Below are positions 1 through 59,253 of a DNA stretch of 64,000 nt, one piece after another. The translations under genes were made by a program, and so were the position numbers. This DNA comes from a virus (taxonomy: Duplodnaviria > Caudoviricetes): positions 1 through 64,000 of IMG/VR virus record IMGVR_UViG_3300025154_000071; one strand, given 5' to 3'. Each line of letters starts with the position of its first letter. The stretch's first letter is position 1. Under the pieces are notes generated by a model. It saw only the letters and a list, made by a program, of their open reading frames with translations, did no database searches and was not told the DNA's origin.

Positions 1-1089
1 GCAACGACTGTTCAAACTGCCGTTGATACGATTGCAGTAATGTTATTAGCGCATGATATTGATTTAGACTCGATAGCAGTTGCTATCAATAATCTTGATT
101 TGAGATTAGATAGTGCAGAGACTAAAATAAATAATATTGATTTAAGATTAGCAAGCGTTGAAGTAGTGTTTGAGGGAGGTTCCACCGGAGAAGTCATCAC
201 TAGGACCGATGATGGATATACTTGGGAAACACCTTCATCTGGTGTTACAGATCACTTATTATTAAGCAACATTGGCACAAATACTCATGCAACTATTGAT
301 CTATTCATAACAACAGCAGAGGCATTATTAAATCAGATTAATCCTGCTGCATTACCTGATGATAGCACAGCATGGGGATATAAAACAGCAACAGGTTATG
401 GCTATTATCCATCAAGCTCAACTGGTGGTGCTACTGTTGAATGTGTTTTAAATCTTGAATATACTGCACGTTCTCAAGGTGATGCAGCAAGTGGATATTA
501 TCGAATATTCGATTATGATGTGACATCATCTGTTATTATAAGTGGCACTGTTGGAGTTACTCAGAATGGCTTATTTCAATATGAGACTACACATTATGCC
601 ATTAGTACATGGGATGATTCTGGTACAGATAAGTTAAGAATAACAATGACATACGATGTTGATGAAACAAGTGATGTACGAGTGTCATATTATGAAACAT
701 TGCCCTTGATGGCAGTGATACAATCAACTAATGTATTAACCACTGATGGATATTTACAGGATGATTTAGATGATAGATACACTAAGGCTGAAGCAAACGC
801 GGTAACCTCGGAAGAAGTGCTGGTGCATAACGAAGATACGAACGCGCACCTTGCAAAATTCGCCGCCATACCATTAGCGACAGCGATCGAAGACACTGCG
901 ATATTTATCAGCTCAAATGTATTCGAATTCAGCGACGACTACGACACCACCGCCGTAGTGCTGTACCGCAACGGCATCATGCAGCCACGAAGGTTGTTTA
1001 CCACCGCTGACGTGGCGAGTAAGACGCGAGTTACATTTATCAGTGCAGTAAACGACAGCGACGAAATCATTTTCATATCCAATAAATAG
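1..1089 (+). CDS. Tail/tail-fibre-like structural protein, 5' end outside the window
   Basis: Frame is open from base 1 (ATG at 40 is internal). N-terminal coiled-coil-like repeats (NNLDLRLDS/NNIDLRLAS), Thr/Ser/Gly beta-rich body, YTKAEANA motif typical of tail-fibre modules; lies upstream of lysis genes. Confidence 0.6.
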   Translation, partial: ATTVQTAVDTIAVMLLAHDIDLDSIAVAINNLDLRLDSAETKINNIDLRLASVEVVFEGGSTGEVITRTDDGYTWETPSSGVTDHLLLSNIGTNTHATIDLFITTAEALLNQINPAALPDDSTAWGYKTATGYGYYPSSSTGGATVECVLNLEYTARSQGDAASGYYRIFDYDVTSSVIISGTVGVTQNGLFQYETTHYAISTWDDSGTDKLRITMTYDVDETSDVRVSYYETLPLMAVIQSTNVLTTDGYLQDDLDDRYTKAEANAVTSEEVLVHNEDTNAHLAKFAAIPLATAIEDTAIFISSNVFEFSDDYDTTAVVLYRNGIMQPRRLFTTADVASKTRVTFISAVNDSDEIIFISNK

Positions 1090-1102: not shown

Positions 1103-2545
1103 ATGAAAAAGGTATTATTCATAGCCGTTATCGGTATTTTGTTATTCTCTACGGTAGCATTCGCACAGAGTGGATTCGTAAGCCCGGACCAAGTGATGCC
1201 CAACGCGCCTCACATGGTCAATAATCAGTTGTTCAGGAATGTCCCGTTCATTGGAGCATCCCAAATGAATAGTTATATTGCCAACTCCAGTAACGGGTTT
1301 ATTGGGATGGGCGATAATAACTATATAGCGTATGTTCATTCGGTTTTTAGTGTAAGAGGGTACAAACTGAGGGCATTCAAAATGGTAAACGGAAGAATAA
1401 CCCAAAAAGGCCCGATTTTGCTTACCGAAGACTTGGACAACAAATACGAACCAGTAATGGTGTCGTTATCTGCTACGAATGCAGTTTTTTGCATCTCAAA
1501 CTACAGTACCAGTTTGAGGTCCTACTGTGTTACTTTGAATCCCTCAACATTGACCTTGACAATGAGCGCGGCACACAATGACACTACCGCATCGTATATA
1601 TGTGGTATTTTTTTAAATCTGATGAGGTATTCAGACACCCAAGCCATTCTGACCACCTTCGACGCAGGAGCAAATAAGACAACGATGAGATATATCAATA
1701 CATCGGCAGGAAGTATAACAAGCGTGAGCGGGCACGTATCCGATTCTTTTTCCTATACTTCCTCGGCATTACATAGTGGAATGGTGACGGACAACCATTT
1801 TACATCGTTTACTGTGAATAATGGTAGTAATTATATTCAAACAGTTTATGCGAACGGAAGCGGATTCACCAGAAGTGCATTCTCGACTACTGCAATAAGC
1901 CCTGGCACAAACATGACTGGTATATTTTTTAGGGGCAAAGGAAGAGCGACAGCGATAGCAGGTGTCGCATTTGCCTATTCAAACAACACCCTTGATGTAG
2001 GTTCTACCAACCCTGTGCATTATGTGGTTTCGAACTCGACATCCTCTGCGTTGTACAATACCGATGCCGGGGACATTTACCAAAAAATTTCAATCGCAAT
2101 AGACGACACTTACGCTGTTTTATTAGGAGTTCGAAGCAATTCCAATATGAATGTTCCGATACTTTTTTTGTTAGGATTCGATAATGAGCAGACCGTCACC
2201 ACAGCGCAACAAATAAACGCAAATATTAGCATATGCGATATAAAGTATCTGGTCAATATGCCAATAGACCCTTATGTGACAGGAGGAACGTCACAAGCCA
2301 ATAGGTCCTACACCCCATTCGTTAGCATTTATTTGCAGAGTTCGTCTAATTACAGTTTGTCTCCGGCAAATAAAAACTATTGGTATTACGATTCCAACGA
2401 AAAGATTTTGTATTTCGGAGCACCTTGGGGTTGGCAAGGCAATCAAGAGGGTTCTAAAGCAAACGCCTCCACATTTATGATAGTCCCAATCAAGATTGAA
2501 ATAGACGAAGCGGGGGCAAGGTTTGGAACGCTTAACCTTAAATAA
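1103..2545 (+). CDS. Signal-peptide-bearing beta-rich protein (possible propeller/adhesin)
   Basis: GGAGG RBS; MKKVLFIAVIGILLFSTVAFA|Q Sec-type leader; Ser/Thr/Asn-rich beta strands. Function unknown. Confidence 0.6.
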   Translation: MKKVLFIAVIGILLFSTVAFAQSGFVSPDQVMPNAPHMVNNQLFRNVPFIGASQMNSYIANSSNGFIGMGDNNYIAYVHSVFSVRGYKLRAFKMVNGRITQKGPILLTEDLDNKYEPVMVSLSATNAVFCISNYSTSLRSYCVTLNPSTLTLTMSAAHNDTTASYICGIFLNLMRYSDTQAILTTFDAGANKTTMRYINTSAGSITSVSGHVSDSFSYTSSALHSGMVTDNHFTSFTVNNGSNYIQTVYANGSGFTRSAFSTTAISPGTNMTGIFFRGKGRATAIAGVAFAYSNNTLDVGSTNPVHYVVSNSTSSALYNTDAGDIYQKISIAIDDTYAVLLGVRSNSNMNVPILFLLGFDNEQTVTTAQQINANISICDIKYLVNMPIDPYVTGGTSQANRSYTPFVSIYLQSSSNYSLSPANKNYWYYDSNEKILYFGAPWGWQGNQEGSKANASTFMIVPIKIEIDEAGARFGTLNLK

Positions 2546-25913: not shown

Positions 25914-26071
25914 TATATTGTATTATTTTATTAATTTGAATAGATAGTACACGCCAATTGTCATTATGCCACATAATATAATTCTAGTTATTTCACAAAA
26001 ATATAAATATGTGATATAATTATTTCCTATTTCTAATATTACTTTGCATAATATATCCATATCAGTATCTC

Positions 26072-44907: not shown

Positions 44908-46710
44908 TTATTTCGGTCCCGCCCTTAGATACATTTCTTTATCAAATTCTTCATTCAACTCCTTTACTTTAAAATTATCAAATACCACAGGAAACATTGC
45001 CTTACCTTGTGTTATAAAGAAGAACTCTTCGCCTGTATCTTGATTATAAAACATACATTTGACATCATCATCGATTACATATGTTTTTTTAGCCGCCTCT
45101 ATACCAAGGTTATTAACAATAGATTTGCACGATAACGTCGATACTGTTACTGTGCAATTTAATAGTTTACGCGCTATTGCTTCTGCTTGTTTAAGCGTTT
45201 GTTCGTTATATTCTGGCATAACATAGTAGCTGATTTCGTTATGCCCTATAAACTGCTGTGCTAATTCCTTTGATGTTTCAGCGAAAGATGTAGGTACATC
45301 TTCAATAAATACCTTTTGAATTAATCCAAGTTGACCAAGCAGATTAAACAATCTATTCGCTGTGCCTTTATCTTTGCCTATGATTGAACCGAAGTATCTA
45401 TTCGACAAGAATGTAAGTGCTTTTCCTTTATAATATAATTCCACTGGCTGTGATTTATCGATCTGATATTTAATAAGATCGTGTATTGTGCTTTTGTTCT
45501 TCTTAAGTAATTTATTAATAGCAGGATAATCAGCGCCATTTAAATCAAACCATGTGTTCTGATCGCCTATAAGTTTATTTATCTCGCGATAATACTCTTC
45601 ATTGCCTGTAAATATTTTAACCACAGAGCATAACTGCTTAACAAAATCAGATACGCTCACATTACATAACTTGCAAATCATCTGTATGTTATTTAAGGAT
45701 TTACCATGCATAGAGCAATTGCTGCTATGGCAATAAAACAACCAACTATTATCAAAGCCGCGATAAACAACTGCGCTCTCCTTTCTATCTTCATGGAAGA
45801 TACACTTAACCGACTTAGACGCACCCAAGTCAAACATATTATTCATATCAAGACTATTAATATATAAAAATAAATCTTGATTACTCTTAAACATATACTT
45901 ATCTCTTATCTTATTATATTCTATATCTTCTATTATATTATCTTGTATATAAGATATATATGTAGATATAGATATAGGAGAGGGGGAGATAGGGGTATTA
46001 CTTTCATTATTATTGTTGGTTTTTTTTAAAGGCTCATTTTTACTGCTATTTTCAGAGGGGATAAATCTTGAGGTTAAAGATTCGAAGATTTCATCTTTAA
46101 TCATAGGTTGGTTGTTAAAGTTAACCAATGTAACTTCAACTGGATTGTTAATGTCTTTATTATGGAAAGACCCAGGCAAACGTATTGGATGATTAGGCGT
46201 TGATACAGCCCTATCTAAAATTAAGCCGGTGTCGAATCGGATTATATTCGCAATGGCACCCCAAACGTCCTTGTATGAAGTTTTAGATAGGTCTGTAACT
46301 TGAATATATCCATGCGGGCCTCCGACCGAATTAACTATGCAGTTAAATCTGATCGGACATGAATTAGAAGATGCGTATTTGATAAGCACATTGGATATGT
46401 CAACGCCCGATTTGTAGGTGGGATTATCTTTAAGATCGATATCGAAGAATAGATTAGAATAATCTAAGATATCGTTTTGTTTGCGTGATGTTGTTTTGTT
46501 CGGAATAAGATAAATGCCCTCGCCATTTGACTGAGCCTTATCCATACGAAGAAAAAGAGAATCAGATAGCGGTTCAGCCCAAGCGCCAGTGATGTTTGAG
46601 CCAATTCCATGCTGAAACTGAATCCGGAATTCGGATAAATTTATTTTATTTATGAAATTTTTTATTGATTCCCTATTGACATGCAATGGGATTTGTGTTA
46701 AGATAATCAT
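44908..46710 (-). CDS. Replication protein with RepB-type primase domain, Zn-finger-like module and helical C-terminus
   Basis: GIYLIPN, FFDID, S.GG.HGY, D.AV..P.HP.RLPGSFH.K; C.FHED...SA...CH...C. Confidence 0.75.
   Translation of the reverse strand: MIILTQIPLHVNRESIKNFINKINLSEFRIQFQHGIGSNITGAWAEPLSDSLFLRMDKAQSNGEGIYLIPNKTTSRKQNDILDYSNLFFDIDLKDNPTYKSGVDISNVLIKYASSNSCPIRFNCIVNSVGGPHGYIQVTDLSKTSYKDVWGAIANIIRFDTGLILDRAVSTPNHPIRLPGSFHNKDINNPVEVTLVNFNNQPMIKDEIFESLTSRFIPSENSSKNEPLKKTNNNNESNTPISPSPISISTYISYIQDNIIEDIEYNKIRDKYMFKSNQDLFLYINSLDMNNMFDLGASKSVKCIFHEDRKESAVVYRGFDNSWLFYCHSSNCSMHGKSLNNIQMICKLCNVSVSDFVKQLCSVVKIFTGNEEYYREINKLIGDQNTWFDLNGADYPAINKLLKKNKSTIHDLIKYQIDKSQPVELYYKGKALTFLSNRYFGSIIGKDKGTANRLFNLLGQLGLIQKVFIEDVPTSFAETSKELAQQFIGHNEISYYVMPEYNEQTLKQAEAIARKLLNCTVTVSTLSCKSIVNNLGIEAAKKTYVIDDDVKCMFYNQDTGEEFFFITQGKAMFPVVFDNFKVKELNEEFDKEMYLRAGPK
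46676..46704 (+). promoter_or_regulatory. Antisense sigma70 promoter inside the first codons of rep
   Basis: TTGACA-17 bp-TAAGAT with TG extension. Confidence 0.7.
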
Positions 46711-46764
46711 TGTAACTTTACCAATGGCGCTCTAAAGACCGTAAATCTTTAGGGCGTTTTTTTT
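46711..46764 (+). ncRNA. Putative counter-transcribed antisense RNA (~55 nt)
   Basis: Bounded by the 46676 promoter and a plus-strand intrinsic terminator (stem 46727-46757, T8 to 46764); fully complementary to the rep leader. Confidence 0.6.
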
Positions 46765-46796
46765 CCTTTCTCTTAAATGTCAAAAAACATAAATTT

Positions 46797-46825
46797 ATTT
46801 TAACATATTTTTGGGTTGATGTCAA
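46797..46825 (-). promoter_or_regulatory. sigma70 promoter of rep
   Basis: TTGACA-17 bp-TAAAAT with TG extension. Confidence 0.8.
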
Positions 46826-46855
46826 GAGATTTCCTGGATCGGTTGAGGGCTTGGA

Positions 46856-47301
46856 CTAACCCCTCCCGTCCTTCAAGGCAACCTGAATCTCTTCTTCATA
46901 ATCAGAAGAATCTTTAACGCATTCTATGCTCCCTGATTCGCCAGTTACGTAATTATCGTAATAAATTGAGCCATCTTCAAGCCCCCATATTTCGGTATCA
47001 GGGCTTAATTTTCTTAGCTGTTTAATTAAGCTGGCCACTGTTCTATTGTTCATGTTCTCTCCTTATATTTTCTAAAGATACATAGATGTCCTTCCTCTGA
47101 TATTTCAATACGGTCTATTTCTATATCGTATCCTTCTTGCACTAAGGACTGATTTAAAATTTTATGTAAATTGTCCTTATATATAAACAATGTGTCCGAT
47201 GGCATTGTGTCTATTGATTTAAGTGGCTTTTCGATATATTTATTTTGCCACATGACTCCATCTTCATCTGGGCCTTCATCCCAATCTTTAAACATTCTCA
47301 T
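46856..47301 (-). other. Two small hypothetical ORFs
   Basis: 46856-47053 and 47050-47301, ATGA-coupled. Confidence 0.55.
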
Positions 47302-47764: not shown

Positions 47765-47805
47765 ACTATTACCTCACTTTGCATTAAATTGACAGGCTAA
47801 GAGAT

Positions 47806-47834
47806 ATTATATCATACTTTTATGAATATGTCAA
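47806..47834 (-). promoter_or_regulatory. Consensus sigma70 promoter
   Basis: TTGACA-17 bp-TATAAT with TG extension. Confidence 0.85.
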
Positions 47835-57400: not shown

Positions 57401-59253
57401 CTGCTTCACGATATTTATCATTACGAGCAAACGATTTTAACGAGCATATCGTTACGAGAACAAATAACTCGTTTTTGCTGATATCAGGCTTTTCTATAGG
57501 CAACATCTTGGTTAAGAAATGATCTGGATGTAAGGAAATATGCAGTCCCAGGTCTTTGCCATTGAATGTGATATGCTCGACAAGAAACTTATCAGGCGAT
57601 GGAATATATGGAGGCACTGCCTTGCCAAATGGTTCGGGCGCTGTCTGGACATCGATTGCTACTAATTCTCCCTCCATGTCGTAACAGGAGAAATTAGTAC
57701 GAGAACCGCTATCCCAACATGAACGCAATGTTCGAGGAGTGTCTGATATTGACACTCTGATGTTTGTTCCTGAATAGCCTGTCAATGATTTAAGTTTGTC
57801 GAACAGTGGTGATTTATTTAACCATATTGCCTCCATGTTATCTCTCCTCCCTAATAACGCGATACCAGGCGGCATCGCAGTGTTTGCACTCATATAAGAT
57901 ACGATAGTCTTCGTTGCTTATTTTGATACAGTCGTGATGCCCGCAAAATGGGCAGTATGTGAACATATATGCCTCCTAGTCTCTGTTATACATTGCCTGA
58001 GCCATCGCTACTCTATAGCGATAAATAGGATTGTGTTTTAAAACAAACTTTTTATATTTGTCCATATTGTGCCTCCAACATCGTTTTTAATTCAAAATTG
58101 CCGCCAAACATTATCATGCCAGATGCGATTGACCTTGGTACAATAAATGTCTCACCTGTGTCGATATCAGTGACGCGAATGATAGGACCACCTAAAAACT
58201 TATCTAACCCGAAAAATGAATTGCTTGTTACCATAATATTCCCTCCTGTTTAATAATTTATTTGTGATGAAATAACCTATAACTCCACCTATTAGCACCG
58301 AAATAATAATTGTCATGTTATTCCTCCTTATCCTTTTTTAGCATATCTTTAATGTCGTGAATGTTATGGAATATATCAACTATCAGATAAAATGCAACGA
58401 ATCCTAAAAAATAGGTAATGTATGTCGGGATATTTTGAATTATTGATGCATTGATAGCTGACATGATAACTGTAAATGCAATAATTATTATTTTTTCTTC
58501 GGACATATGGTTCCTCCTTTTACTCAATTACAATATATGCCCCAATCATCCCGCCCCTGTGGTCACTGTCTACGTCTTTTAATATTTTAATGCAGTTGAA
58601 AATATCAAAACATTTTTGCTCTGGATTTATAAACTGCTTTAGATATAACGGGATGAGAAACTCATTGTCTGAACTCCATTTTTTAAACCCCAAAGAGATT
58701 GCTTGGTCGCGAGTTAAGTCATTAATGTATGGCAAATTGTTTTCGAATGGTCTAATTATGGAATCTTTTGTTTCTATTATGTTTTTAATCTTAAATTTGT
58801 CTGTCCAATCATATTCTATTGCTTCGGCCACTGATGATAGAAGGCTATTTCTTGCTTGACATAAAAAGTATAAACGTCCATAATATTTCCTCCTTAAAAA
58901 TAAAAGCCACCACTATTTTAATTTAGCGATGGCTTTCTGTAATATGTCCTCAAAATTAGACGGTTGAGATGCCGTCTTGACCTTTTGTATTGGTTTAATA
59001 GGTCTATAAGGCTGGTCAATGGCCTTAATGACCTGATGAATTGGCTTTACCATGCTATCTGTATTTCAGATACAAGCGTGTTCTTTGATCTAATTACTTC
59101 AATAACGCCGCCAACCAGGACGCCATATATCGCAGGATCGTCAGGGAAGTCTTCGATGAAATTATTGTAGTTATTAAGCGTTACCATTGATATAGAGTCA
59201 TGAAGAGTCAAAAATACTGTAATTCCATTTACTATAATCATAATAGCCTCCAT
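54460..59253 (-). other. Run of short accessory ORFs
   Basis: 54460-54657, 54675-55106, 55116-55463, 55460-55693, 55703-55909, 55875-56189, 56179-56550, 56462-56668, 56671-56868, 57001-57210, 57207-57893, 58052-58234, 58318-58527, 58520-58831, 59047-59253. Confidence 0.6.
58896..58936 (-). terminator. Intrinsic terminator
   Basis: AAAGCCAUCGCUA/UAGUGGUGGCUUU stem (G-U pairs valid on minus) followed by UUUUAUUUUU. Confidence 0.75.

Follow-up and report, generated by a model that had tools for sequence, protein, structure and literature searches.

What governs the expression of a replication gene whose own first codons carry a strong promoter pointing in the opposite direction? The question is raised by a locus in a 64,000-nucleotide (nt) stretch of viral DNA (Duplodnaviria; Caudoviricetes; positions 1 to 64,000 of IMG/VR record IMGVR_UViG_3300025154_000071), referred to here as the window, in which a minus-strand open reading frame (ORF) at 44908..46710, with its ATG at 46710-46708, encodes a 600-amino-acid (aa) primase of the archaeo-eukaryotic primase (AEP) type. 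An initial annotation, made from the letters of the DNA alone, had described the start of this gene, labelled rep, as a complete antisense control circuit of the plasmid kind. The analysis presented here indicates that a cis-encoded antisense small RNA (sRNA) of the countertranscript type probably limits translation of the primase. The elements of this arrangement, their strand specificity and their conservation are directly visible in the DNA.

At the centre of the locus is a plus-strand promoter (46676..46704; TTGACA-17-TGnTAAGAT, 10/12 consensus positions), composed of a -35 element TTGACA at 46676-46681, a TG at 46696-46697 and a -10 element TAAGAT at 46699-46704. It lies within codons 2-12 of the primase ORF and its -10 element ends 4 nt before the start codon, so transcription is expected to begin at 46709-46712, around the start codon itself, as the initial annotation had proposed. 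The antisense promoter belongs to the strongest class in the phage, cTTGACAt-17-TGnTAnnAT, which has about nine members, and every other member precedes co-oriented genes or an sRNA candidate. Upstream of its -35 element runs an A/T-rich tract (46640..46675, plus strand), which resembles an UP element and may serve as one, and which encodes the conserved peptide IKNFIN.

Downstream on the same strand stands an intrinsic terminator (46726..46764), with a 13-pair stem (46726-46738 with 46746-46758), a 7-nt loop (46739-45) and a T8 run at 46757-46764. For minus-strand transcription the order is unfavourable, A8 coming before the hairpin and no U-run after it, so that the structure can act as a terminator on the plus strand only. 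Among plus-strand terminators in the 60 kb scanned it is the strongest, even though the surrounding genes all lie on the minus strand. The geometry of promoter and terminator predicts an antisense RNA of about 54 nt (46709..46764, plus strand), consisting of an unpaired, A/U-rich 5' tail of about 15 nt, the 13-bp hairpin and U8, and complementary to leader positions -1 to -54 of the primase gene. When folded, the plus-strand RNA reaches -16.2 kcal/mol (z -3.5) versus -12.3 kcal/mol (z -1.9) for its complement. The strand-specific terminator, with its G-U pairs and T8, is thus borne out by the layout, which also agrees with the RNA of about 55 nt opposite the initiation region that had been predicted from the DNA earlier. 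As is characteristic of antisense RNAs as a class, the predicted transcript would have a promoter of its own, opposite its target and firing into the target's 5' region, and a 3' end defined by a strand-specific intrinsic terminator.

The target gene is preceded by its own minus-strand promoter (46825..46797; TTGACA-17-TGnTAAAAT, 11/12 with TG in the consensus scan), located 87 nt upstream of the primase ATG and of the same class, cTTGACAt...TGnTAnnAT, as other promoters of the phage. Transcription from it would start near 46790, giving a predicted leader of about 80 nt (46711..46790, minus strand) which contains A8 and the complement of the hairpin. No Shine-Dalgarno (SD) sequence of the GGAGG type is found before the primase ATG, where the window has just UGGU and its relatives AGGUG or AGGU; this weak SD directly adjoins the hairpin in the relatives. 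The gene adjoining the primase, in contrast, carries the SD AAGGAGAG. A minus-strand promoter with a predicted leader of some 80 nt and no clear SD, the remaining part of the circuit first described, is accordingly present. In the predicted fold of the mRNA, the stretch between the hairpin and the AUG is largely unpaired. An imperfect inverted repeat, CCCTATTGACATGCAATGGGA (46672..46692), spans the antisense -35 element, was flagged as a hairpin in the scan and forms a hairpin in the sense-mRNA fold; it is kept in the relatives L003-L005 with a change that improves its pairing, and could be either an operator or an mRNA hairpin.

The rarity of the antisense unit was assessed by counting promoters of 10/12 or better that have a terminator 10-120 nt downstream, with no fewer than 8 pairs and 6 Ts required of the terminator. 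Two such units occur in the window; dinucleotide shuffles contain 0.1 on average, and 28 of the 30 had none. Promoter-like sites overall are as numerous as the shuffles predict, and only the combination of promoter and terminator is rare.

Conservation was followed through a close clade with 73-94% protein identity, namely L001/L002, L003 (identical to L044), L004, L005 and L006, drawn from IMG/VR, JGI, Logan and NCBI assemblies. Five close relatives keep both promoters, their 17-nt spacing, the hairpin and a T-run of T4-T8. The hexamers of the sense promoter are invariant in all five clade members, in which the DNA further upstream cannot be aligned. Likewise, the antisense -35 element is invariant (TGTCAA on the sense strand), as is the stretch ATAAAAAATTTCATAAAT in the A/T tract upstream of it, and the TG and 17-nt spacer are always kept; the -10 element reads TAAGAT, TAGAAT or TATAAT, these variants (TGTTAAGAT, TGTTAGAAT and TGTTATAAT) arising through synonymous or conservative changes of Ile/Leu codons. 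Codons 1-20 of the gene are under unusual constraint, with 11 of 12 amino-acid-invariant codons also codon-invariant versus a fraction of 0.489 gene-wide, which places this bin at the top of 31 (binomial P 0.0025).

The hairpin itself is preserved as an RNA structure of the antisense strand. On that strand 98.7% of the hairpin cells in the alignment are paired, compared with 28-68% when the pairing is slid by 1-3 columns, and two pairs have changed in a compensatory manner (A-U to C-G and G-C to U-G). Leaving aside the two G.U pairs at the base of the stem, eight cells hold a wobble whose counterpart in the mRNA would be a C-A mismatch, only one cell is of the opposite kind, and the antisense strand is the more stable by 4-7 kcal/mol in all four lineages folded. 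This wobble asymmetry, together with the better folding, points to selection of the hairpin in a plus-strand RNA. Variation within the clade alignment is greatest in the 5' tail and in the loop, and the stem is kept, a pattern to be expected where regulator and target share the same base pairs. Wider searches added few sequences. Metagenome and genome scans for relatives returned close copies only, IMG/VR scans with P0005 and P0006 returned no relatives, and a search with an invariant 15-mer gave 29 loci, real only on the two known contigs. One relative, L044/L045, lies on a 116.5-kb contig (G001:C16) that represents a near-complete phage and was binned in a 1.1-Mb metagenome-assembled genome (MAG); the ParA/ParB and integrase matches of this MAG are only on other contigs, and the binning is therefore little informative on the host.

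The same layout recurs in three distant homologs, L009, L011 and L014 (31%, 27% and 25% identity), which rebuild it from unrelated leader sequence and have in common the N-terminal motif LxxVN..KNF. In L009, a sense promoter (138-166) is opposed by an antisense promoter in codons 2-11 (289..261; TTGACA-17-TGnTATACT), and a GC hairpin (178-196) has its T-rich tail on the antisense strand only. The antisense promoter of L011 reads TTGACT-17-TAAAAT (819..791) and is accompanied by a bidirectional terminator of the form A5-hairpin-T6 (735-774). That of L014 reads TTGACT-17-TATTAT (1547..1519), and the hairpin there (1465-1494) carries T6 on the antisense versus T4 on the sense strand. In these two lineages a CopG-family ribbon-helix-helix (RHH) gene lies directly upstream of the primase homolog, at L011:515-727 (PF01402, E 1e-3, below the cut-off) and at L014:1260-1445 (recognised by eye). 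The operon promoter precedes the RHH gene, the bidirectional terminator hairpin separates the RHH and primase genes, and a separate primase promoter is absent, giving an operon of the copG-repB kind. The peptide LxxVN..(I/L)KNF(I/F), at 46639-46683 in the window (codons 10-24), occurs only in those homologs that have the antisense promoter; as VN encodes the -35 element and KNF the A/T tract, the peptide is possibly conserved in part for the sake of the promoter. Another homolog, L008, has a very stable leader (L008:1925-2030; -37.9 kcal/mol, z -4.8) with a long GC hairpin, and a CCUCU at its 5' side pairs with the SD AAGGAGG; the ribosome-binding site of the same gene may here be masked in cis by other means.

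How far the encoded protein accounts for the promoter was gauged by resampling the synonymous codons of the first 16 codons according to each gene's own codon usage. A promoter as good as the real one arose with P 0.18 in the window, 0.012-0.014 in L003-L005, 0.005 in L009, 0.034 in L011 and 0.23 in L014, and the Fisher combination over the four independent lineages is 0.0025. The antisense promoter thus appears to come partly, though not wholly, free with the encoded peptide. In the window, L009, L011 and L014 its -35 element falls on GTC AAY, which encodes Val-Asn, although just 5-20% of the Val codons of these genes are GTC; multiplied across the four lineages these fractions give 1.5e-4, as a post hoc observation. 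Several points nevertheless weigh against an antisense regulator. The resampling values for the window itself and for L014 are modest, and promoter conservation is in part protein-driven, given that the -35 element lies in Val-Asn and the -10 element in Ile/Leu codons of an AT-rich genome. Conservation among rep homologs, named in the initial annotation as a check, holds for the five close and three distant relatives and breaks down in L008, L010 and L012, which lack the N-terminal motif and in which no antisense unit was found. The bidirectional hairpins of L011 and L014 could merely terminate the upstream RHH gene. The whole comparison, close and distant, amounts to only about eight independent sequences. 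Finally, the sense and antisense RNAs would both scale with template number, so that net repression depends on kinetic assumptions.

The production of the RNA, the repression of translation and a benefit to the phage are read from this arrangement, and the following course of events would fit it best. A strong promoter of the host sigma-70/SigA type within codons 2-12 would fire backwards from about the start codon, and transcription would end about 54 nt further on, in the leader and some 25 nt before the sense start point; as the terminator stops the antisense transcript there, the sense promoter would be spared. Pairing would most likely begin between the 5' tail and a linear stretch of the target, as in pMV158 RNAII. 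The resulting duplex would cover the 54 nt upstream of the AUG, including the weak SD, and thereby block ribosome binding and limit primase translation, with cleavage of the duplex perhaps acting in addition. The likeliest purpose would be to limit, or to turn off, a protein that primes the origin early, once templates become more numerous. Two other models for the leader were considered and rejected: a split ribosome-binding site in the style of T4 gene 38, with AAAGGA upstream of the hairpin, would still leave an effective spacing of about 22 nt, and attenuation of the pT181/pIP501 type is at odds with a sense strand that has no terminator after the target site.

Countertranscript control of replication proteins is textbook knowledge in small plasmids. 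The closest parallel is RNAII of pMV158, whose 48 nt comprise a single-stranded tail of 17 nt, a hairpin of 8 bp and U8; its binding and its inhibition of repB translation are driven by the tail and not by a kissing loop (PMC4485353). The predicted phage RNA shares with RNAII the single-stranded 5' tail, the single terminator hairpin and the U-tail, and both lie opposite the untranslated region just before a replication gene, over atypical or weak translation signals (PMC4485353). In pMV158 the target is preceded by copG, and a CopG-family RHH gene likewise precedes it in L011 and L014; the window departs from this order, its upstream ORF of 65 aa having no RHH match. Further differences lie in the target, which in pMV158 is the small rolling-circle replication initiator RepB and here an AEP primase of 600 aa that carries a CHC2 zinc ribbon, and in the replicon, a small plasmid as opposed to a phage of about 80-117 kb with its own replisome and a separate sense promoter. 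Other plasmid systems (R1 CopA, pT181 RNAI, pIP501 RNAIII and the p42d ctRNA) resemble the phage locus in that a rep leader is matched by an antisense RNA encoded in cis, with stems that are conserved and recognition loops or tails that vary, but operate through kissing loops, attenuation or leader-peptide coupling, whereas no sense attenuator or leader-peptide gene is evident here. Among phages, the nearest precedent is sar of P22, a phage-encoded RNA of 68/69 nt that pairs with the ant initiation region and blocks its translation (PMC12197685). Both RNAs are directed at the initiation region of one phage mRNA, although sar controls an antirepressor within a temperate immunity region, whereas the phage RNA would control a replication protein, and no lysogeny genes were seen in its phage; homology between the two RNAs is not to be expected. 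A 2025 review of phage small RNAs names sar, OOP, aQ, c4 and others, none of which is aimed at a primase or initiator (PMC12197685). Searches of the 64 kb against the Rfam families for countertranscript RNAs (ctRNA_pGA1, pND324, pT181, p42d, CopA and RNAI) gave no match at the gathering threshold, nor did any other Rfam family, and in 46500-47000 Rfam returned only noise from unrelated families (E>=0.3).

The target is a plasmid-/phage-type AEP primase that joins a RepB'/PrimPol fold to a CHC2 zinc ribbon, an assignment based on Pfam matches of the family, profile and Foldseek matches and conserved motifs. The window protein itself gave no match in direct Pfam, NCBIfam or PDB sequence searches; only its distant relatives and a search by fold allowed the family to be placed. 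Within a family of 287 representatives, 28 diverse members were compared with Pfam, and PF16793 (RepB_primase) was found in 16 of them and PF01807 (CHC2) in 20. The family profile matches the AEP domain of S-2L PrimPol (6zp9, 2.6e-8) and the zinc domain of DnaG (2au3, 4e-8), and Foldseek, given an AlphaFold (AF2) model with a pLDDT of 78.9, placed 6zp9_A on top (TMt 0.78), followed by RSF1010 RepB' (3h20/3h25, prob 1.00). Conserved in the family are D90/D92 (DxD), GGPHGY and a cluster of C303/H306/C327/C332, so that the protein combines the catalytic fold of AEPs with their acidic DxD and sGxH motifs. The primase has this catalytic fold in common with RSF1010 RepB' and the PrimPol of cyanophage S-2L, but adds to it a DnaG-type CHC2 zinc ribbon and a helical, helix-turn-helix-like C-terminal region of about 250 aa; its identity to the solved structures is only 11-12%. 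The label rep used in the initial annotation is hence a fair, if loose, name for an AEP primase of the RepB'/PrimPol fold, and an initiator role is conjectural.

The genomic setting is that of a phage with extensive replication functions. The window encodes a DNA polymerase resembling Pol III alpha, a DnaB helicase and a DnaG-type primase, together with NrdD and its activase, thymidylate synthase, RNA ligase, an SbcC-like nuclease, exonucleases and several homing endonucleases, a gene set typical of a large virulent phage with its own full replisome. No tRNA genes were found in the 64-kb window, no DNA match to cultured phages was obtained, and the primase protein gave just weak partial matches among phage and plasmid proteins. 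The polymerase is less than 30% identical to its nearest cultured relatives, among which are phages of Moorella and Geobacillus. The 116.5-kb contig of the relative with 73% identity (G001:C16) yielded no match to an integrase, large serine recombinase, resolvase, ParA or ParB, an absence that is not proof; in the G001 assembly, matches to PF00589, PF13614 and PF02195 lie only on contigs other than C16, and searches with PF00239 and PF07508 gave nothing.

The initial annotation had gone further than the circuit itself and ascribed plasmid-type copy control to the phage. Spelled out, this reading would have an unstable RNA, made in proportion to dosage, inhibit a rate-limiting initiator and so set the copy number of an episomal (phage-plasmid) prophage. 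The RepB'/PrimPol fold is of a plasmid replication protein type, the RNA is shaped like pMV158 RNAII (PMC4485353), the copG-RNAII-repB gene order is reproduced in L011 and L014, and the primase gene has a promoter to itself and is separate from the main replication operon. Set against this are the full replisome, NrdD, thymidylate synthase, RNA ligase and homing endonucleases of a virulent-type repertoire, the missing integrase, recombinase, resolvase and ParA/ParB on the contig of the 73% relative, the lack of a close relative among the plasmids and cultured phages searched, and an upstream ORF in the window that is not an RHH protein. None of the tests lends support to copy control, which in view of the full replisome and of a relative without integrase, resolvase or ParA/ParB stays conjectural and is rather unlikely; capping or timing of an origin-priming protein as templates multiply is more likely.

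The remaining explanations concern whether an RNA acting on the primase leader is involved at all. Convergent promoters about 120 bp apart could interfere by occlusion or collision, the terminator protecting the sense promoter and the RNA being a by-product, and it would be consistent with this that the antisense transcript stops about 25 nt before the sense start and that sense transcription, including read-through from a 12/12 promoter at 47834, must pass the antisense promoter. Pure interference, however, needs neither a structure selected on the RNA strand, as seen in the wobble asymmetry and compensatory pairs, nor an RNA that always covers the SD region in four lineages with differing leader lengths, and both count against it as the main effect, leaving it unlikely. 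RepB' binds ssiA/ssiB hairpins and acts in RSF1010 on ssi hairpins, which raises the thought that the hairpin is a DNA element, an ssi or origin structure for the adjacent RepB'-type primase, with the promoters activating the origin. The structure of RepB' with initiator DNA (3h25) is among the fold matches, the G.T asymmetry would likewise favour one DNA strand and the neighbouring A/T-rich tract could be an unwinding region; yet every lineage has a T-run after the hairpin, on the strand of the promoter, and a strong promoter 20-80 nt upstream, neither of which an ssi site needs, and the hairpin sequences are unrelated from lineage to lineage, so a DNA element is very unlikely. An sRNA that acts in trans on mRNAs of the host or on other mRNAs of the phage, and that lies across from the primase leader only incidentally, has precedent in known phage-encoded trans sRNAs (PMC12197685), and the 5' tail of the relatives carries CACCU, which resembles an anti-SD. 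Tail and loop differ, however, among close relatives, by which a trans target would be lost and a cis target kept automatically, and the position relative to the start codon is maintained down to 25% identity; trans action is for these reasons highly improbable. Least probable of all is that the consensus matches arose by chance in AT-rich DNA and that the hairpin is kept for the sake of the mRNA itself. The number of promoter-like sites and the weak resampling values in two lineages would agree with chance, which sits badly with a rare promoter-terminator unit, folding and pairing on the antisense strand, membership in the promoter class of the phage and a layout recurring in four lineages. 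A cis-encoded antisense RNA that limits primase translation hence remains the probable reading of the locus.

Elsewhere in the window, several other sites have a related appearance. The second promoter-terminator unit (TTGACA-17-CATAAT, 11/12; 58856-58982, plus strand) has a hairpin at 58962-58982 with a weak T-run, and its -10 element overlaps the ATG of a 21-codon minus-strand ORF (about 58881) with the strong SD AAGGAGG; here, too, an antisense RNA encoded in cis may cover a ribosome-binding site. A perfect 12/12 minus-strand promoter with TG (47834..47806) overlaps a plus-strand TTGACA-18-CATACT (47789-47818), the pair (47789-47834) being situated in the gap between a GP88-like gene and a 3D-domain gene. 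The sequence TTCACA-17-TGnTATAAT (11/12; 25992-26020, plus strand) lies in a gap between minus-strand genes (25707, 26072) and is possibly another antisense or divergent start.

Taken as a regulatory principle, the mechanism is a known one, and the primase locus thus extends it and adds no new one; the RNA family is uncatalogued and the setting is unusual, in that the AEP primase belongs to large phages whose replisome is complete. A broader and rather speculative possibility is that an RHH protein and a countertranscript of about 50 nt form an ancient, mobile control module for the AEP primase genes of large virulent-type phages. Such a module might sense template dosage and stop origin priming as genomes accumulate, with tail and loop serving as incompatibility specificities among co-infecting relatives and the LxxVN..KNF peptide conserved largely for the promoter and UP element that it encodes. 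If the antisense RNA of the primase gene is real, it would provide dosage or timing control of origin priming in lytic replication, by means of a compact regulator that could be tested outside the host, and would offer a clear case of N-terminal codons constrained by a promoter on the opposite strand.

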